From Escherichia coli (GTDB lineage: Bacteria > Pseudomonadota > Gammaproteobacteria > Enterobacterales > Enterobacteriaceae), in the NCBI RefSeq assembly GCF_009931435.1, contig NZ_CP043414.1: 64,000 bases of DNA. One strand, 5' to 3'. The notes under the pieces are model-generated. The model made no database searches and was not told the DNA's origin. It saw nothing but the letters and a program-made list of their open reading frames with translations. Shown piece after piece: positions 2,095 through 64,000 of the stretch (positions within the stretch are counted from its first letter, which is position 1; the number at the start of each line of letters is the position of its first letter). The position numbers and the translations under genes are program-made.

Positions 2095-2474
2095 CGTTGT
2101 TTTGTCGTGGGCAGGAAAATCAGCATCAACCCGCTCATAATACAGGCTACTCCCAGTAGTGCTTTCAGCGAAAAAGTCCCTTCCCAGCCGGGAAGTACCA
2201 TTGAAGCAATCCATACCAGCACATAACTCATACTGAGCAAGGCATAGGCTTTGCTTAGTGCAAGTTTATGTAGTGTTTTATACCAACAAAAAACGGAAAG
2301 CAGATAACCCAGCAGCCCGAGTAACAGTATCCGGGCATCCAGGCCAAAAGCTAACAGCGCCGCGATAAAATCCCATAAGTGCGTCATCGGCGGTAGATGA
2401 CTCGCCGCATAACCCAGGCTTAATTGCGCAGCTGAGGCAATAATGACGCTGAATAATCCCCACATCAGGCCCAT
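2088..2474 (-). CDS. arnF: undecaprenyl-phosphate-L-Ara4N flippase subunit ArnF (128 aa)
   Basis: C-terminal 128 aa of the 222-aa ORF match ArnF ([14 protein letters not shown]...); start ATG shares one nucleotide with the arnE stop. Confidence 0.9.
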
Positions 2475-2809
2475 TACACCGTACTCCCGAGGATCACAAT
2501 GCCGCCAATAATGAACGCCACCCCACACCAGTGACGCAGTGATACCGGCTCGTGCCACAGTTTTACTGCAGCCAGCGTCACCCAGACAAAATTCAGACTT
2601 AACATCGGGTAGGCAATGCCTACCGGTACGTTCTGCAAGACCAGCAGCCAGAGCACCATGGCAAGGCCAAGACAAGCCAGCGCCAGTCCCAGCCACAGCA
2701 CGATATGTCTGCGCCGTTTGTTTATCGCCACAAAGCAGGTTGCTTGTTTCTGACACAACTGCCCGGCAACGCTAAGCAAGCTGGCAAAGACTAATGTTAG
2801 CCAGATCAT
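2474..2809 (-). CDS. arnE: undecaprenyl-phosphate-L-Ara4N flippase subunit ArnE (111 aa)
   Basis: 111-aa small multidrug-resistance-like membrane ORF; 4-nt overlap with the arnT stop. Confidence 0.9.
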
Positions 2810-4458
2810 TTGGGCCGATACTGAATCAGCACCAGACGCTCCTGACGATCGATGGCATCTGCGGGCGGAATGGCGAGACTGTTGATATCTTCATCGCGGT
2901 CAACCGAAAGCACGAGTGTAATAACCCCCTCCTGACGATGTTGATTAAGCCAGTTTGCGAACTCATCACCGCTGACAAATCTCCCTTTCGCATCCGGATA
3001 ATTTAGGCCGTATTTCAATTCCCCTGTCTGGCGATACATGATGATGTCATCACGTCTCAGGCTCCATGCCAGACCAGCAGCAACGCCGACGCTATCGGTA
3101 AGAATATAGCGGCTTGGCTGCAGTGATTCTTGTGTCGTCTCGACAAAAAATTGCGGATGTTTTCCTTCCATGACTCTGTCAGGAATTGAAAATCCTACCA
3201 GCAACGCCAGCCCAAGCGGGCAAAGTGCGGCAAAAGGCCAGTTTTTTTCGACGTTTGTTAAGGTATACCAGCCGAAAAATGCCCATAGCGAAAAAATCGA
3301 CCATGCACAGAAGACTTTATAGCTCTCGAAGGTTTGCCACACCGGCGTGCTCATAGGTCCCCAGGGGGAGACCACAAACGTAGCAATAATGCCAGTGACG
3401 CCAAAAGCGATGTTAATCCAGCCATTAATCCGCAACGCCAGAGGATTATTTTTTGCTGCCAGCAAAGCGTAATGCGCCATCAGCATTGCCAGAGGTGCAA
3501 AGCAGGAAAGAATATAGGTGGGCAATTTGCCTTTGGCAACGGAGAAAAACAGCAGCGGCATTACCGCCCAGCTCAATAAATAGACGGTTGCGGAATGCTT
3601 GCGGTTTTTCCAGCCTGTGTACAGTGCTCCGGGGAGTAATCCCAGCCACGGCAGGCTACCGGCAATGATGACCGGCAAGTAGTACCAGAACGGAGCTCTA
3701 TGCTGGGCATCATCCAGTGCAAAGCGTTGAATATGCTCAACCCAGAAAAAATAGTGCCAGAAGTCAGGCTCCCGCTGCGCTATCGCCAGTCCCCAGGGGA
3801 GAACCGTCAGTACGCAACTGATAACCGCCAGCCAGCCGTAAATAAAGAGATCTTTCCAGCGTTTTTGCGTTGCAACCCATGGCAGCACGCTTAATACCGG
3901 CACGGCAAGGGCGAGAAAACCTTTGGTCATCACCCCCATGCCGCAGGTGATTCCCAGCAGTAAAAATCCCGCGCTTTTGCCTTTCCACGTCTGTGCCTGC
4001 ATTGCCAGCCAGAAGCTGCACATTCCCGCCACCAGCCAGAATGCAATAAACGGATCGAGCACGGCATAAGTGCCAATGGCATAGACAATAAACAGTGAGA
4101 GATAAATCACTGCGGCGAGTAGAGCCAGACGTTTATCGCGCCATAAGCGCAGGGTAAACCAGGTCACCAGCGCGGCAGTTAACAGGGTCGCAAAGATAAC
4201 GCCTGCCCGCACACCAAAGTTATTTGCGCCAAATAGCCATTGCCCAATACTGTTAATCCAGTATCCGGCAATGGGTTTTTCGAAATAACGTAGCCCTAAC
4301 ATATGGGGCACAATCCAGTCGCCGGATGCCAGCATTTCCCGACTGATTTCCGCATAACGCGTTTCATCTGGTTGCCAGAGCAGACGCGTGCTGATCGGTA
4401 ACAGGTAATAGCAGGCAATAAACGCGAAGAGGCCGATAAGGTAACGTACCGATTTCAT
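2806..4458 (-). CDS. arnT: undecaprenyl-phosphate-alpha-L-Ara4N transferase (550 aa)
   Basis: 550-aa polytopic membrane ORF ([13 protein letters not shown]...); position in the arn operon. Confidence 0.95.
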
Positions 4459-37397: not shown

Positions 37398-40025
37398 ATG
37401 AGCGACCTTGCGAGAGAAATTACACCGGTCAACATTGAGGAAGAGCTGAAGAGCTCCTATCTGGATTATGCGATGTCGGTCATTGTTGGCCGTGCGCTGC
37501 CGGATGTCCGAGATGGCCTGAAGCCGGTACACCGTCGCGTACTTTACGCCATGAACGTACTAGGCAATGACTGGAACAAAGCCTATAAAAAATCTGCCCG
37601 TGTCGTTGGTGACGTAATCGGTAAATACCATCCCCATGGTGACTCGGCGGTTTATGACACGATCGTCCGTATGGCGCAGCCATTCTCGCTGCGTTACATG
37701 CTGGTAGACGGTCAGGGTAACTTCGGTTCCATCGACGGCGACTCTGCGGCGGCAATGCGTTATACGGAAATCCGTCTGGCGAAAATTGCCCATGAACTGA
37801 TGGCCGATCTCGAAAAAGAGACGGTCGATTTCGTTGATAACTATGACGGCACGGAAAAAATTCCGGACGTCATGCCGACCAAAATTCCTAACCTGCTGGT
37901 GAACGGTTCTTCCGGTATCGCCGTAGGTATGGCAACCAACATCCCGCCACACAACCTGACGGAAGTCATCAACGGTTGTCTGGCGTATATCGATGATGAA
38001 GACATCAGCATTGAAGGGCTGATGGAACACATCCCGGGGCCGGACTTCCCGACGGCGGCAATCATTAACGGTCGTCGCGGTATCGAAGAAGCTTACCGTA
38101 CCGGTCGCGGCAAGGTATATATCCGCGCCCGTGCGGAAGTGGAAGTTGACGCCAAAACCGGGCGTGAAACCATTATCGTCCACGAAATTCCGTATCAGGT
38201 GAACAAAGCGCGCCTGATCGAAAAAATTGCGGAACTGGTAAAAGAAAAACGCGTGGAAGGCATCAGCGCGCTGCGTGACGAATCTGACAAAGACGGTATG
38301 CGCATCGTGATTGAAGTCAAACGCGATGCGGTCGGTGAAGTGGTGCTCAACAACCTCTACTCCCAGACCCAGTTGCAGGTTTCTTTCGGTATTAACATGG
38401 TGGCATTGCACCATGGTCAGCCGAAGATCATGAACCTGAAAGACATCATCGCTGCGTTTGTTCGTCACCGCCGTGAAGTGGTGACCCGTCGTACTATTTT
38501 CGAGCTGCGTAAAGCTCGCGACCGTGCTCATATCCTTGAAGCATTAGCCGTGGCGCTGGCAAACATCGATCCGATTATCGAACTGATCCGTCATGCGCCG
38601 ACGCCTGCAGAAGCGAAAACGGCGCTGGTTGCTAATCCGTGGCAGCTGGGCAACGTTGCCGCGATGCTCGAACGTGCGGGCGATGATGCTGCGCGTCCGG
38701 AATGGCTGGAGCCAGAGTTCGGCGTGCGTGACGGTCTGTACTACCTGACCGAACAGCAAGCTCAGGCGATTCTGGATCTGCGTCTGCAGAAACTGACCGG
38801 CCTTGAACACGAAAAACTGCTCGATGAATACAAAGAGCTGCTGGATCAGATCGCGGAACTGTTGCGTATTCTTGGTAGCGCCGATCGTCTGATGGAAGTG
38901 ATCCGTGAAGAGCTGGAGCTGGTTCGTGAACAGTTCGGTGACAAACGTCGTACTGAAATCACCGCCAACAGCGCAGACATCAACCTGGAAGATTTGATTA
39001 CTCAGGAAGATGTGGTAGTGACGCTCTCTCACCAGGGCTACGTGAAGTACCAGCCGCTTTCTGAATACGAAGCGCAGCGTCGTGGCGGGAAAGGTAAATC
39101 TGCCGCACGTATTAAAGAAGAAGACTTTATCGACCGACTGCTGGTGGCGAACACCCACGACCATATTCTGTGCTTCTCCAGCCGTGGTCGCGTCTATTCG
39201 ATGAAAGTTTACCAGTTGCCGGAAGCCACTCGTGGTGCGCGTGGTCGTCCGATCGTCAACCTGCTGCCGCTGGAACAGGACGAACGTATCACCGCGATCT
39301 TGCCGGTGACTGAGTTTGAAGAAGGTGTGAAAGTCTTCATGGCGACCGCTAACGGGACCGTGAAGAAAACTGTCCTCACCGAGTTCAATCGTCTTCGTAC
39401 CGCCGGTAAAGTGGCGATCAAACTGGTTGACGGCGATGAGCTGATCGGCGTTGACCTGACCAGCGGTGAAGACGAAGTAATGCTGTTCTCCGCCGAAGGT
39501 AAAGTGGTGCGCTTTAAAGAGTCTTCTGTCCGTGCGATGGGCTGCAACACCACCGGTGTTCGCGGTATTCGCTTAGGTGAAGGCGATAAAGTCGTCTCTC
39601 TGATCGTGCCTCGTGGCGATGGTGCAATCCTCACCGCAACGCAAAATGGTTACGGTAAACGTACTGCGGTAGCGGAATACCCGACTAAGTCGCGTGCGAC
39701 GAAAGGGGTTATCTCCATCAAGGTTACCGAACGTAACGGTTTAGTGGTTGGCGCGGTGCAGGTAGATGACTGCGACCAGATCATGATGATCACCGATGCC
39801 GGTACGCTGGTACGTACTCGCGTTTCTGAAATCAGCATCGTGGGCCGTAACACCCAGGGCGTGATCCTTATCCGTACTGCGGAAGATGAAAACGTGGTGG
39901 GTCTGCAACGTGTTGCTGAACCGGTTGACGAGGAAGATCTGGATACCATCGACGGCAGTGCTGCGGAAGGGGACGATGAAATCGCTCCGGAAGTGGACGT
40001 TGACGACGAGCCAGAAGAAGAATAA
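37398..40025 (+). CDS. gyrA: DNA gyrase subunit A (875 aa)
   Basis: 875-aa ORF with the active-site Tyr region and an acidic C-terminal tail; the quinolone-resistance region reads [11 protein letters not shown] (Ser83, Asp87). Confidence 0.97.
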
Positions 40026-56939: not shown

Positions 56940-59784
56940 TTGAAATACCTTGCTTCTTTTCGTACAACCCTGAAAGCCTCGCGCTACATGTTCAGAGCAT
57001 TGGCGTTAGTGCTCTGGCTGTTGATTGCTTTTTCATCCGTTTTTTACATCGTTAATGCGTTGCATCAGCGAGAATCGGAAATTCGTCAGGAATTTAATCT
57101 GAGTTCCGATCAGGCTCAGCGCTTTATTCAACGCACCTCTGATGTGATGAAAGAGCTGAAGTACATAGCTGAAAATCGCTTATCGGCAGAAAACGGTGTG
57201 CTTTCGCCGCGTGGACGAGAAACGCAGGCAGATGTGCCAGTGTTTGAACCACTGTTTGCCGACTCCGATTGTTCCGCAATGAGTAACACCTGGCGAGGTT
57301 CTCTGGAGTCATTGGCGTGGTTTATGCGCTACTGGCGCGATAATTTCTCTGCGGCTTACGATCTCAACCGGGTATTTTTAATCGGCAGCGATAACCTTTG
57401 CATGGCCAATTTCGGTCTGCGTGATATGCCAGTGGAACGCGATACCGCGTTGAAAGCTTTGCATGAACGCATCAATAAATATCGAAATGCACCACAAGAT
57501 GATAGCGGCAGTAACCTCTACTGGATCAGCGAAGGTCCGCGCCCTGGCGTCGGGTATTTTTACGCCTTGACGCCAGTTTATCTGGCGAACCGGTTGCAGG
57601 CGCTTTTAGGTGTTGAGCAGACCATCAGGATGGAGAACTTCTTCTTACCTGGTACGTTGCCGATGGGGGTAACCATTCTTGATGAAAATGGTCATACCCT
57701 GATTTCGCTTACCGGACCGGAAAGCAAGATTAAGAGCGATCCTCGCTGGATGCAGGAACGTTCCTGGTTTGGCTATACGGAAGGGTTCCGGGAACTGGTG
57801 CTGAAGAAAAACCTGCCACCTTCATCGTTAAGCATCGTCTATTCGGTGCCGGTTGATAAGGTGCTGGAGCGCATTCGCATGTTGATCCTTAACGCGATTT
57901 TACTGAATGTGCTTGCCGGAGCCGCGTTGTTTACTCTCGCACGGATGTACGAGCGGCGTATATTCATTCCTGCGGAAAGCGACGCCCTGCGACTGGAAGA
58001 GCACGAGCAGTTTAATCGCAAGATTGTCGCTTCCGCGCCAGTGGGTATCTGCATTTTGCGTACCGCTGATGGCGTTAATATTTTAAGTAACGAACTTGCG
58101 CATACCTATCTCAATATGCTTACGCATGAGGATCGCCAACGACTGACGCAAATTATTTGTGGTCAGCAGGTCAATTTTGTTGATGTCCTGACCAGCAACA
58201 ATACCAATCTGCAAATCAGCTTCGTCCATTCGCGCTATCGTAATGAAAACGTGGCTATTTGTGTGCTGGTGGATGTTTCTTCGCGCGTGAAGATGGAAGA
58301 GTCGTTGCAGGAGATGGCACAAGCAGCGGAACAGGCGAGTCAGTCAAAATCGATGTTCCTTGCCACCGTAAGTCATGAGCTGCGAACGCCGTTGTATGGC
58401 ATTATCGGTAACCTGGATCTGTTGCAAACCAAAGAGCTGCCAAAAGGCGTCGATCGTCTGGTGACGGCAATGAACAACTCTTCCAGCCTGTTGTTGAAAA
58501 TTATCAGCGATATTCTCGATTTCTCGAAAATTGAATCAGAACAGTTGAAGATCGAACCGCGTGAGTTTTCACCGCGTGAAGTGATGAACCACATCACCGC
58601 CAACTATTTACCGCTGGTGGTACGCAAGCAGCTAGGCTTGTACTGCTTTATTGAACCGGATGTGCCAGTGGCCTTAAATGGCGACCCAATGCGTTTACAG
58701 CAGGTCATCTCCAACCTGTTGAGTAACGCCATAAAATTCACCGATACCGGCTGTATAGTTCTGCATGTTCGCGCTGATGGCGATTATCTCTCTATCCGTG
58801 TTCGCGATACCGGCGTGGGGATTCCGGCGAAAGAAGTGGTGCGCTTGTTTGATCCCTTCTTCCAGGTCGGAACGGGCGTACAGCGTAACTTCCAGGGGAC
58901 TGGTCTGGGTCTGGCGATTTGTGAAAAACTGATCAGCATGATGGACGGCGACATCTCGGTAGATTCAGAACCGGGAATGGGCAGCCAGTTTACCGTGCGT
59001 ATTCCGTTGTACGGCGCTCAGTACCCGCAGAAAAAAGGCGTGGAAGGGTTGAGTGGTAAACGCTGCTGGCTGGCGGTCCGCAATGCGTCGCTCTGTCAGT
59101 TCCTGGAAACCAGTTTGCAGCGCAGCGGCATCGTCGTTACAACATACGAAGGGCAGGAACCGACTCCCGAAGATGTGTTAATCACTGACGAGGTAGTGAG
59201 CAAAAAATGGCAGGGTAGAGCGGTAGTGACCTTCTGTCGTCGCCATATTGGTATTCCGCTGGAGAAAGCGCCAGGGGAGTGGGTACACAGTGTGGCTGCA
59301 CCGCATGAGCTACCGGCATTGTTGGCGCGTATTTATTTGATCGAGATGGAGAGCGATGATCCTGCTAACGCTCTGCCGTCGACGGACAAAGCGGTCAGCG
59401 ATAACGACGATATGATGATTCTGGTCGTGGATGATCATCCGATTAACCGGCGTCTGCTTGCAGATCAGTTGGGATCGTTGGGTTATCAATGTAAAACTGC
59501 GAATGATGGCGTCGATGCGCTTAATGTACTTAGCAAGAATCATATCGATATCGTGCTTAGCGACGTCAACATGCCAAATATGGATGGTTACCGCTTGACG
59601 CAACGCATTCGTCAGTTGGGGCTGACGTTGCCGGTAATCGGAGTAACTGCTAATGCGCTGGCTGAAGAGAAGCAGCGGTGTCTGGAGTCCGGTATGGACA
59701 GTTGCCTGTCGAAGCCGGTAACGCTGGATGTTATAAAACAGACACTGACGGTATATGCCGAGAGGGTCCGGAAATCGCGGGAAT

Positions 59785-59789
<5 letters not shown>
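56940..59789 (+). CDS. rcsC: hybrid sensor histidine kinase RcsC (949 aa)
   Basis: 949-aa ORF with periplasmic domain, HisKA (SHELRTP), HATPase and C-terminal receiver domain. Confidence 0.95.
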
Positions 59790-59982
<193 letters not shown>

Positions 59983-59987
59983 GATGA

Positions 59988-60638
59988 TTAGTCTTTATCT
60001 GCCGGACTTAAGGTCACAGAAGAGAGATAATTCAGCAGAGCAATATCGTTCTCGACACCCAGCTTCATCATCGCAGATTTCTTCTGGCTACTGATGGTTT
60101 TGATACTGCGGTTCAGCTTTTTAGCGATCTCGGTCACCAGGAAACCTTCCGCAAACAGGCGCAGAACTTCACTCTCTTTTGGCGAGAGACGCTTGTCACC
60201 GTAACCACCAGCACTGATTTTTTCCAACAGGCGAGAAACGCTTTCCGGGGTAAATTTCTTCCCTTTCTGCAGCGCGGCGAGAGCTTTCGGCAGATCGGTC
60301 GGTGCACCTTGTTTCAGCACGATCCCTTCGATATCCAGATCCAATACCGCACTAAGAATCGCCGGGTTGTTGTTCATGGTCAGAACGATGATCGACAGGC
60401 TTGGGAAATGGCGCTTGATGTACTTGATTAAGGTAATTCCATCGCCGTACTTATCGCCAGGCATGGAGAGATCGGTAATCAACACATGCGCATCCAGTTT
60501 CGGCAGGTTGTTGATCAGTGCTGTAGAGTCTTCAAATTCGCCGACAACATTCACCCACTCAATTTGCTCAAGTGATTTGCGAATACCGAACAAGACTATC
60601 GGATGGTCATCGGCAATAATTACGTTCATATTGTTCAT
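59988..60638 (-). CDS. rcsB: response regulator RcsB (216 aa)
   Basis: Start at MNNMNVIIADDHPIV; receiver domain plus LuxR-type HTH. Confidence 0.95.
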   Translation of the reverse strand: MNNMNVIIADDHPIVLFGIRKSLEQIEWVNVVGEFEDSTALINNLPKLDAHVLITDLSMPGDKYGDGITLIKYIKRHFPSLSIIVLTMNNNPAILSAVLDLDIEGIVLKQGAPTDLPKALAALQKGKKFTPESVSRLLEKISAGGYGDKRLSPKESEVLRLFAEGFLVTEIAKKLNRSIKTISSQKKSAMMKLGVENDIALLNYLSSVTLSPADKD

Positions 60639-60654
60639 GTAATAGGCTACCTTG

Positions 60655-63327
60655 CTACAGCAAGCTCTTGACATAACTGTCAATGTCGCTGATGTATTTT
60701 TCTATTCCTGGAACATCCTTCTCACGAATCAGATGTTCCAGCGTTTCACATAACTGCTTGCCGGGTACCAGATTTAGCATGGCAAATACGCCTTTAAGAC
60801 GATGAGCCGTTTGGGCTAACGCAGCAAAGTCACTGGTTGCTGCTTCAGTATACAGCCTCTTAACATCATCCGGTACTGTGTCTACAAAGAGCGCATAATA
60901 GCCGCTGGCATGGAGTTGCGCATTTTCATCTCCGCCCAGAGGCGATTCTGTCACCTCTTCCTGCGCCAGTTGCACTTCAATTAATTGTAAGACCGCTTCC
61001 TGCATAGCGTTGCTCATATTGAAGTTGACGCACAATTGACCAGGCCCAATTTCCCGTACGCCAGACTCATCATCGCTTAAAAGCAAGCCAGAGGCAGTAA
61101 GATTAGACGGATTATCCGTTAAAAAGATATCATAATCTTGACTAATTAATCTTTCATCGGGTGTGATACAGGTTGCACCCCAATTTTCTAACTGGCGAGT
61201 GACAATATTCCGAATTTCTGCTGAAGTGACATCCACCATTACGCAGACATCATCCAGTAAACGCTCTTCTTCCTCTTCAACTTCCGGATCAGCTGCGAGC
61301 ATTTTGATATGCACAGAATAGCGTGTACCAAGCCCGTCCCGCGTTTTGATGTTTAAATGACCGCCCAGTTTACGCGCCAGTTGATCGCTCAACCAGAATG
61401 CCAGCGGGTCGGCCTTGCCATAGCGATCGTTTTGGGTCCGGTTGATAAACGGGAAGTGCAAATTATCCATTTCATGAATGCTTACGCCTTCACCGGTGTC
61501 CAGAATGCGGAAAGTCAGGCGGTCTTCGGACGATTCATCCTGATCAACCTCAAGGGTGATTTTTCCCAATTGTGTTGAGGTCACGGCATATTGCATCAAT
61601 AGCAGCAAAATACGGCGTAAGGCATCGCGATCGCCACGGCGCATATCGTGTGCTTTCAGATGATTGTTAATCAGCAGTTGCAGTCCTTTACGCTTGATGG
61701 CAGGCAATACTGAAGGCACAACTTCATCAATCAAATCCTGCACGGAGAACAGCTCCGTCTCACTTTTCCAGCTATCGTCCGCAAGCATATTCGCTAACTG
61801 TATTTCATCGACCAGCCGCACCAGCACATCTGCCTGATTCGCCAGTTGTTTGCCTTCCGGGGCGTTGAGTTTAGCCGCGCTCTCCGCCAGGGACTGTGCG
61901 GGTTCTTTCAGCGCATCGCCAATGTTTTTCATAAAGGTCATCCGCCCCTGCTGGTTTTTCTCATACAGACGCTGCGCCTGCTTGAGTTTCTTGTTTACCA
62001 GCACTTCGCGATCCTGATCGCGAATAATGAAAATTTGTGTGCGCGGCGCAACCTGGCTGCGGAACATGCGGATCTCATACAGCTCGTTATTGATCGTCGC
62101 CTGAATAATCCCCTGATGCTGCTCCGCCATGGTAGTGATGTTTTGCAGATTTAAATGCGGCAGCAAATGATCGGCAATTTTGTTACTTATGACAGTGCGG
62201 TTCGATTCCTGATCGTGAACCAGCAAGCCGAGCGGCAGCAGTGAGACTATCTCTTCATTAATTGCCCGTAAAATGCGCAATTCGTTATTGACCGCCGTGC
62301 TGGGGACGCTTTCTGTACTGCGGCTGGAGAAATGGCGGAATGTGGTATAGCCAAATAACGCCAGCGCCAGCAAACCGATGTTCAGCAGCAGTGGCAGCAG
62401 AATGTTTTGCAACGTATCCAGCAATAAGGTGCCATAAGGAACCTGCCAGACCAGGCGCATATCGGTAGAGTTGAGTGCCGAGGAGATTTCAATCTTCGTA
62501 CTGTTAAAGTGGATACTGACGCTATCCGTCCCTTCTTTCTCATTTTCATTGTTTCCCGTTGCCGTCGCGTCTGGCTCAAGGCGGAAACTGTCCAGCGGCA
62601 TACCCGGTGGGATCAAATCATTAATCGGCAGATCAAAAGCAACGACCGTTGCCAGATGTCCCGGCTGGTTGAACGTGGTACGCAAGGTAAAGTAATGACC
62701 GTTCTGCCAGGCCAGGCGGCGCAGGTTAGAAAAACTTTCGCGTTCATCGAGCGCGTTGGCCTGTTGCAACATCTCTGCGCGACGTGAATCAACAATGTCG
62801 CTGACGGTCGATTCTTTAAATCCGGAGGTGAGATCTTTGAGGGGCAGGGTCGAGATCAGTACCAGACTGTTATCCTGACCATTCAGGTAATACATCGACC
62901 ACGGTATATTTTCTGCGCCCCATAACGTGTCCAGATAGGTGGACATCCGTTGAGTCATCTCAAGCGTTGAGTTGTCGTGAGAGCCAAAGATTAACGCTTC
63001 CGTTTTGCGGCGTGGTTTTTCCAGATAGTAGACATCCTGTTTCAGGCGCGTCTCTTGTAAACCTTCGCCGGAGGAGGGGGAGGTCGTCGCGGCAATGTTG
63101 TCGTAGATCTGCCAGGTCACATAACGCCAGGTATCGACGCGCTTTTGGATAGCGTGGGTAATGTCGACAATCTGGTAACTTTTATCTTTCAGCCAGGCGT
63201 TAACGGCGCTTTGTACCATTACACCCATCGTCACCAGTAACACAATGATCAACAGTAAAAAGAAGCGGGTAATGCTCCCCGGTAGGAGTGAAAAGCGGGT
63301 CGTGGCCGTTGTCTCTTTCTGACGCAT
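60655..63327 (-). CDS. rcsD: phosphotransfer intermediate RcsD (890 aa)
   Basis: 890-aa ORF with N-terminal TM region, degenerate kinase-like domain and C-terminal HPt domain. Confidence 0.95.
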   Translation of the reverse strand: MRQKETTATTRFSLLPGSITRFFLLLIIVLLVTMGVMVQSAVNAWLKDKSYQIVDITHAIQKRVDTWRYVTWQIYDNIAATTSPSSGEGLQETRLKQDVYYLEKPRRKTEALIFGSHDNSTLEMTQRMSTYLDTLWGAENIPWSMYYLNGQDNSLVLISTLPLKDLTSGFKESTVSDIVDSRRAEMLQQANALDERESFSNLRRLAWQNGHYFTLRTTFNQPGHLATVVAFDLPINDLIPPGMPLDSFRLEPDATATGNNENEKEGTDSVSIHFNSTKIEISSALNSTDMRLVWQVPYGTLLLDTLQNILLPLLLNIGLLALALFGYTTFRHFSSRSTESVPSTAVNNELRILRAINEEIVSLLPLGLLVHDQESNRTVISNKIADHLLPHLNLQNITTMAEQHQGIIQATINNELYEIRMFRSQVAPRTQIFIIRDQDREVLVNKKLKQAQRLYEKNQQGRMTFMKNIGDALKEPAQSLAESAAKLNAPEGKQLANQADVLVRLVDEIQLANMLADDSWKSETELFSVQDLIDEVVPSVLPAIKRKGLQLLINNHLKAHDMRRGDRDALRRILLLLMQYAVTSTQLGKITLEVDQDESSEDRLTFRILDTGEGVSIHEMDNLHFPFINRTQNDRYGKADPLAFWLSDQLARKLGGHLNIKTRDGLGTRYSVHIKMLAADPEVEEEEERLLDDVCVMVDVTSAEIRNIVTRQLENWGATCITPDERLISQDYDIFLTDNPSNLTASGLLLSDDESGVREIGPGQLCVNFNMSNAMQEAVLQLIEVQLAQEEVTESPLGGDENAQLHASGYYALFVDTVPDDVKRLYTEAATSDFAALAQTAHRLKGVFAMLNLVPGKQLCETLEHLIREKDVPGIEKYISDIDSYVKSLL

Positions 63328-63638
63328 TCGTGTTTATGACCTGTTAAAACTTCGCGAAGTGATAGGGCAGTATAAAGGGTACAGTGTGAAATTCCAGACT
63401 CTTACCTGATTGATGATTCTCTATTCTCCCGTGATATTTATCATCCTGCATTGGGGGAAATAGATGTACAAGCGCCATTTTGCTGTACAAATAACCTACA
63501 AAAAGCCTAACGAAATTAATTGCAAATAAACGAAGATTGCTGGAAATTATGCTGATGTTAATTATTTGTGAAATAGTTAACAAGCGTTATAGTTTTTCTG
63601 TGGTAGCACAGAATAATGAAAAGTGTGTAAAGAAGGGT

Positions 63639-63731
63639 AAAAAAAACCGGATGCGAGGCATCCGGTTGAAATAGGGGTAAACAGACATTCAGAAATGAAT
63701 GACGGTAATAAATAAAGTTAATGATGATAGC
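63639..63731 (-). ncRNA. micF: MicF antisense sRNA (93 nt)
   Basis: The reverse complement reads GCTATCATCATTAACTTTATTTATTACCGTCATTCATTTCTGAATGTCTGTTTACCCC...CCGGATGCCTCGCATCCGG followed by eight T: the MicF sequence with its terminator hairpin. Confidence 0.85.
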
Positions 63732-63887
63732 GGGAGATATTCTAGTTGCGAGTGAAGGTTTTGTTTTGACATTCAGTGCTGTCAAATACTTAAGAATAAG
63801 TTATTGATTTTAACCTTGAATTATTATTGCTTGATGTTAGGTGCTTATTTCGCCATTCCGCAATAATCTTAAAAAGTTCCCTTGTAT

Positions 63888-63990
63888 TTACATTCTGAAA
63901 CATCTATAGCGATAAATGAAACATCTTAAAAGTTTTAGTATCATATTCGTGTTGGATTATTCTGCATTTTTGGGGAGAATGGACTTGCCG
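63888..63990 (+). promoter_or_regulatory. ompC promoter region with OmpR-binding sites (ompC coding sequence lies beyond the window)
   Basis: TTTACATTCTGAAACATCTATAGCGATAAATGAAACATCTTAAAAGTTTTAGTATCATATTCGTGTTGG matches the ompC upstream OmpR-box region as I recall it; divergent from micF. Confidence 0.6.
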
Positions 63991-64000
63991 ACTGATTAAT

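Follow-up and report, generated by a model that had tools for sequence, protein, structure and literature searches.

A 64,000-nt window of Escherichia coli DNA ends in what is almost certainly the canonical micF–ompC divergent control region

The stretch of DNA analysed here, 64,000 nt of E. coli chromosome referred to below as the window, almost certainly ends in the canonical E. coli divergent control region of micF and ompC. The micF side is complete, and the sequence stops just past the start of ompC transcription. Few regulatory regions of bacteria have been studied as thoroughly, and among base-pairing regulatory RNAs encoded on a chromosome, MicF was the first to be described. As read from the sequence, all functional elements are intact, and the control region is an ordinary, already known one; no result of the analysis contradicts the canonical reading. 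An intact micF–ompC region in another E. coli says nothing new about mechanism. The locus is useful as an anchor, as it shows that the DNA is E. coli, which way it is oriented and where the window has its right-hand boundary. The features are given below in window coordinates; ‘ten genomes’ stands for an alignment that included K-12, ST131, UTI89, O157:H7 and HET6.

60655–63327, minus strand: rcsD coding sequence, downstream of micF on the same strand (ORF of 890 aa)
63328–63638, no strand: micF–rcsD spacer, with five SNPs against K-12 and no feature identified
63639–63731, minus strand: micF gene for the 93-nt MicF sRNA (Rfam RF00033 and alignment to K-12 ncRNA b4439)
63639–63667, minus strand: MicF intrinsic terminator with a 10-bp stem, a 3-nt loop and a U-tract (terminator scan and fold)
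63698–63731, minus strand: MicF 5′ seed (nt 1–34), identical to K-12 and invariant in ten genomes
63739–63744, minus strand: micF −10 hexamer TAGAAT, read against the K-12 +1
63764–63782, minus strand: MarA/SoxS/Rob box (marbox), one mismatch to AYNGCACNNWNNRYYAAAY, overlapping the micF −35 region
63783–63886, no strand: AT-rich spacer from the micF promoter to the OmpR boxes, with IS1 targets of other strains and a hypervariable patch
63887–63906, plus strand: OmpR box C1 (TTTACATTCT GAAACATCTA), from the published C1 oligonucleotide and K-12 alignment
63907–63926, plus strand: OmpR box C2, identical to K-12 and invariant in ten genomes
63927–63946, plus strand: OmpR box C3, identical to K-12 and invariant in ten genomes
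63952–63957, plus strand: ompC −35 TTGGAT, identical to K-12
63975–63980, plus strand: ompC −10 GAGAAT, identical to K-12, with a 17-bp spacer from the −35
63987–64000, plus strand: first ∼14 nt of the ompC 5′ UTR (GCCGACTGATTAAT), from alignments to K-12, R32_14_1F and a draft relative (L007, see below)

The segment 63327–64000 (674 nt) matches 5376 of the 5426 complete E. coli genomes, always in the chromosome and at a median of one location in each genome. It is 98.5% identical to K-12, and one complete genome, R32_14_1F, is 100% identical over all 674 nt, with rcsD and ompC as flanking genes. In R32_14_1F the ompC gene, which is intact, begins 66 nt beyond the position equivalent to 64000 and is followed by apbE and ada. 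These flanks indicate the gene order rcsD (−), micF (−), ompC (+); K-12 has this order too, in the opposite orientation. The ORF equivalent to the one at 60655–63327 is annotated as rcsD both in R32_14_1F and in K-12, and the exact RcsD protein is on record with the Pfam domains RcsD_ABL and Hpt. Thus micF sits upstream of ompC, divergent from it and adjoining rcsD, as expected of MicF genes. The K-12 rcsD promoter presumably lies within the micF–rcsD spacer.

Two further Rfam matches were observed on the rcsD side of the locus. Between rcsC and rcsB, two palindromes of the REP type at 59788–59978 match naRNA4 (RF02564); the copy at 59902–59978 exceeds the gathering threshold whichever strand is scored. 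Inside rcsC, a partial match to the Rev24 antisense RNA (RF02738) at 58000–58197 (−) reaches 102.6 bits against a gathering threshold of 246; this match, clipped by the start of the search range, is probably conserved rcsC coding sequence.

The MicF gene was identified by a cmscan search against all Rfam families, in which 63639–63732 (−) matched RF00033 with 116.8 bits (gathering threshold 79) and an E-value of 8.9e-19, the match covering the covariance model in full (model positions 1–94 of 94). A base-by-base alignment places the 93-nt K-12 micF (b4439) on 63639–63731 with a single differing base inside the gene, at 63650. The score, above the gathering threshold over the whole model, is that of a member of the family. 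The terminator was detected independently of the family model: a scan of 63300–64000 reported one site (0.4 expected by chance), on the minus strand at 63667–63645 and followed by a T-run. Its stem has ten pairs, six of them G-C. A Rho-independent terminator is expected at the 3′ end of a MicF RNA, and the hairpin appears in both the minimum free energy and the centroid folds of the window MicF. The whole 93-nt RNA takes the MicF fold of two hairpins, at −21.4 kcal/mol, while shuffled sequences have a mean of −7.95 kcal/mol (z −5.4) and none out of 200 folds as well. The earlier statement that the full MicF sRNA is recognisable together with its terminator was therefore borne out. Two ORFs running across micF (63537–63674 on the plus strand and 63558–63785 on the minus strand) were dismissed as noise in AT-rich DNA.

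The base that differs from K-12 inside the gene is MicF nt 82, C in the window and U in K-12, which turns a G·U pair of the terminator into a G-C pair. With this change the fold energy is −21.4 kcal/mol versus −18.5 kcal/mol for K-12, a gain in stability of about 2.9 kcal/mol that leaves the structure as it is in K-12. The G-C allele is present in 8 of the 10 sampled genomes, so that the K-12 form is in the minority. Pairing of the 5′ seed was computed with K-12 ompF as the target, the strain's own ompF lying outside the window. Nucleotides 1–34 of the window MicF are predicted to pair with positions −17 to +10 of the K-12 ompF mRNA at −27.4 kcal/mol, in a duplex region that spans the Shine–Dalgarno sequence and the AUG; shuffled seeds gave −14.2 ± 2.9 kcal/mol against the same target, and 1 out of 500 did as well as the real one.

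By the position of the K-12 +1, micF transcription starts at 63731 on the minus strand, and the starts of micF and ompC, ∼255 bp apart, diverge. At −6, just past the −10 hexamer (63737), the micF strand has T in the window and A in K-12; in the alignment of ten genomes this allele is common to the window, ST131 and UTI89. A 107-nt stretch with micF and its promoter recurs with no more than one mismatch in 2929 genomes, and 7 of 40 evenly spaced rows put the share of genomes with an exact copy at about a sixth. The marbox, at −52 to −34 from the micF +1, has one mismatch to the consensus AYnGCACnnWnnRYYAAAYn, which is what a promoter responsive to mar/sox/rob would be predicted to carry, and it is unchanged across all ten aligned genomes. 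The pattern was used for position only, since its matches in the 64 kb (3 versus 1.5 expected) are not significant on their own. The assignment of marbox function to 63764–63782 follows what is established for K-12 micF and what reviews describe.

On the ompC side, the earlier note held the OmpR-box region to be recognisable, and the alignment agrees: from 63887 to 64000 a single base, 63895, differs from K-12, so that 59 of the 60 bases of C1–C3 (63887–63946) are as in K-12. These bases would form three tandem OmpR sites, the organisation described for ompC, in which each 20-bp site has two 10-bp halves and C1 is filled first, at low OmpR∼P (PMC3050692). Box C1 of the window also equals, apart from two SNPs, the C1 oligonucleotide printed as TCCCTTGCATTTACATTTTGAAACATCTATAGCGAT (PMC2586830).

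Promoter elements were placed with the help of K-12. A scan with the consensus promoter model misses both the micF and the ompC promoter (the latter matches 7 of 12 consensus positions), as they are weak and activator-dependent; their assignment thus rests on identity to K-12. The exact borders of C1–C3 (−100 to −41) follow the K-12 footprinting literature; likewise, we take 63952–63980 to be the ompC core promoter from what is known of K-12, and the start of ompC transcription to be near 63987 from the K-12 mapping. Two plus-strand sites reported by the scan, at 63566–63593 and at 63916–63944 (inside C2/C3), were disregarded, as two such sites were found where 2.5 are expected by chance.

The ompC coding sequence had been described as cut off by the edge. 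This has to be corrected: by the position of the gene in R32_14_1F and in near-identical genomes, the window ends 66 nt short of the ompC ATG, the coding sequence is entirely outside, and no ompC coding base is found inside. Extension beyond the edge and alignment to reference sequences, the check proposed in the earlier note, otherwise confirmed its assignment, as the window maps to micF and to the ompC promoter and its MicF seed is the K-12 seed.

The mechanism is established for K-12, and near-identity suggests that it would operate here in the same way. At high osmolarity OmpR∼P would fill C1 and then C2 and C3 (63887–63946), and would thereby activate the weak ompC promoter downstream. 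Transcription of micF would proceed in the opposite direction, activated by OmpR and by MarA/SoxS/Rob, the latter through the marbox overlapping the −35 region. The 93-nt MicF RNA would end at its intrinsic terminator, and its first ∼34 nt would pair across the Shine–Dalgarno sequence and start codon of ompF and block translation, the repression of OmpF synthesis by MicF RNAs being dependent on Hfq. Joint action of this block and of ompC activation would make OmpF fall while OmpC rises.

An intact control region may stand before a gene that is itself broken. This reading was raised by three draft relatives found through the exact RcsD protein: L007 (GCA_035607835.1), L008 (a Logan contig, SRR27493683) and L009 (GCA_009820115.1), all of them identical to the window across the micF–ompC region. 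In L007 and L008 nucleotide 714 of ompC is G, not C, so that Tyr238 becomes a stop (TAC>TAG) and the product has 237 aa. The gene lies at 2159–3262 (−) of L007, where ompC is missing from the called protein-coding genes listed, and the truncated ORF is at 4001–4714 of L008; the window-equivalent position is ∼64067–65170. In L009 ompC is intact and encodes 367 aa, exactly the L007/L008 product with the stop restored to Tyr. A protein look-up of this repaired OmpC gave no record, from an index that is incomplete, since L009 encodes the protein.

The question is then on which side of this difference the source of the window falls. L008 has no mismatch in 3935 nt, i.e. it is 100% identical to window positions 60066–64000, and L007 has one mismatch in 7346 nt. 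L009 has two differences from the window, both synonymous and in rcsD (61531 and 61534), and at both sites the window agrees with L007 and L008. Since the window sides with these two, its source may carry the nonsense codon as well. The promoter would then express a truncated porin of 237 aa while MicF keeps repressing ompF, and the strain would have lost a porin, as variants do under selection by phages, colicins or beta-lactams. Against this, codon 238 is located ∼780 nt past the window end, outside the readable sequence; L009, at a distance of just 2 nt, has the intact gene; L007 and L008 may be one isolate and hence one observation; and the base at 58656 shows that the window is not the L007 assembly. 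Weighing both sides, we give a broken ompC in the source strain an even chance. We also observed that 58656, the sole base distinguishing the window from L007 over 7.3 kb, is within rcsC, with C in the window and T in L007.

Over the 25 kb from 39001 to 64000, none of the 5426 complete RefSeq E. coli genomes reaches more than 98.9% identity to the window, which is colinear with them at an identity per kb from 96% to 100%. Because the best complete-genome identity over this length is only 98.9%, the sequence suggests an under-sampled or mosaic E. coli lineage as the source. A Shigella origin was considered for the same reason and set aside: the stretch is colinear with E. coli, IS1 was not found in window positions 39001–64000, and the relatives assemble into contigs of 0.2–1 Mb. 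Also in line with an under-sampled or mosaic lineage, the ato operon is present in this 25-kb stretch and R32_14_1F, identical over the micF region, is without it. We tentatively put forward, as a possibility somewhat short of probable, that such an under-sampled lineage combines a conserved OmpR/MicF hub with an ompC gene carrying the Tyr238 nonsense codon and so has a reduced general-porin capacity; its rare C1 haplotype (see below) could retune OmpR occupancy. If true, the consequences of the ompC pseudogene would be confined to that one isolate, in its antibiotic, phage and bile-salt phenotypes.

Returning to the control region itself, the alignment over the 674 nt shows ten bases that differ from K-12. 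Four of them fall inside 63639–64000 (63650, 63737, 63885 and 63895). In the micF–rcsD spacer, five differences cluster in 46 bp (63508, 63512, 63516, 63532 and 63553), and this cluster is common to R32_14_1F and the lineage relatives.

The two changes at C1 deserve separate consideration. Position 63885 (−102 relative to the ompC start), 2 bp upstream of C1, is T in the window and C in K-12; the T allele is found in its exact 75-nt context in 515 genomes. Position 63895 (−92), the ninth of half-site C1a, is C in the window and T in K-12; the C allele is found in its exact 70-nt context in 441 genomes, and its carriers include UTI89, 536, S88, APEC O1, LF82 and the type strain ATCC 11775. The two alleles together, in the 66-nt C1 region, are exact in only 61 of the 5426 genomes. 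These changes (−92 T>C and −102 C>T), perhaps along with the one at micF −6, could be read as adaptive, shifting the occupancy of C1 by OmpR and with it the balance of OmpC and OmpF. The rarity of the combination speaks for this idea, as do the role of C1 as the site first occupied at low OmpR∼P (PMC3050692) and the location of −92 within the T-tract of C1a. Yet each change is common alone, in the 515 and 441 genomes just mentioned, and −92 C occurs in well-studied B2 strains (UTI89, 536, S88 and the type strain among them). The rare combination looks, most simply, like a recombinant of two common haplotypes, with T as in ST131 and C as in UTI89. The 7 bp directly upstream of C1 (63880–63886, which include the SNP at 63885) exist in six versions among the ten genomes, a hypervariability across phylogroups that suggests relaxed constraint and not selection. 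We thus consider an adaptive origin of the C1 changes very improbable.

Taken singly, each of the four variants inside 63639–64000 is found in hundreds of genomes. In the alignment of ten genomes, MicF nt 1–81, the marbox, C1b, C2, C3 and the −35 and −10 elements are invariant; the ompC 5′ UTR has a single variable site, −2, where HET6 differs, and the window UTR is that of K-12. Comparison of the variable with the invariant sites thus places the changes of the window where the species tolerates change. None of the four differences is a new mutation: all belong to the standing natural variation of E. coli, and the most fitting reading is that they are neutral or close to it.

In other E. coli of near-identical haplotype, IS1 has inserted at two independent sites within the AT-rich DNA that lies between micF promoter and OmpR boxes. 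The 9-bp target duplications are located at window-equivalent positions 63794–63802 in EF7-18-51 and 63828–63836 in S163-2. Strains C21, TUM9754 and HZ13 have the same two-piece pattern of IS1 matches; junctions were mapped only in EF7-18-51 and S163-2. No IS1 insertion was found in the micF–ompC region of the window itself. A general remark in the earlier note, that porin regulatory regions are frequent targets of adaptive mutation, is hence upheld in part: it agrees with the IS1 sites in other strains and with the ompC nonsense codon of the relatives, but the regulatory region in the window itself has standing polymorphism only.

The last alternative takes the likeness to micF and the OmpR boxes for a coincidence in AT-rich intergenic DNA, or for the remains of a decayed locus. 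It could appeal to the AT-richness of the region and to plain pattern scans for promoter and marbox that are not significant alone, yet it has practically no chance of being true and has already been refuted by the Rfam match (E-value 9e-19, every model position matched), by 98.5–100% identity to a characterised locus with conserved synteny in thousands of genomes, and by a K-12 alignment in which the window copy has no indel or disruption. Bases failing to align with micF or the ompC promoter had been named as the result that would overturn the assignment; they align at 98.5% to K-12 and at 100% to one genome, with a full-length Rfam match.

Compared with known systems, the micF of the window has the same 93 nt as K-12 micF and the RF00033 family, with the same 5′ end, the same two hairpins and terminator, and nt 1–81 identical. 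It occupies the same place between ompC and rcsD, divergent from ompC, and its seed pairs with the ompF initiation region; it differs from K-12 at nt 82 (C for U) and at promoter position −6. The ompC promoter is identical to that of K-12 in C1b, C2, C3, −35, −10, spacing and the first 14 nt of the UTR, and it differs in half-site C1a (TTTACATTCT in the window versus TTTACATTTT in K-12, at −92) and at −102 (T versus C), both being natural alleles. The organisation of ompN and micC has been noted as reminiscent of that of ompC and micF (PMC3617542). There, too, a porin gene is paired with a divergent sRNA that represses the other major porin, but the genes and the locus are different, whereas the window holds the micF–ompC pair itself.
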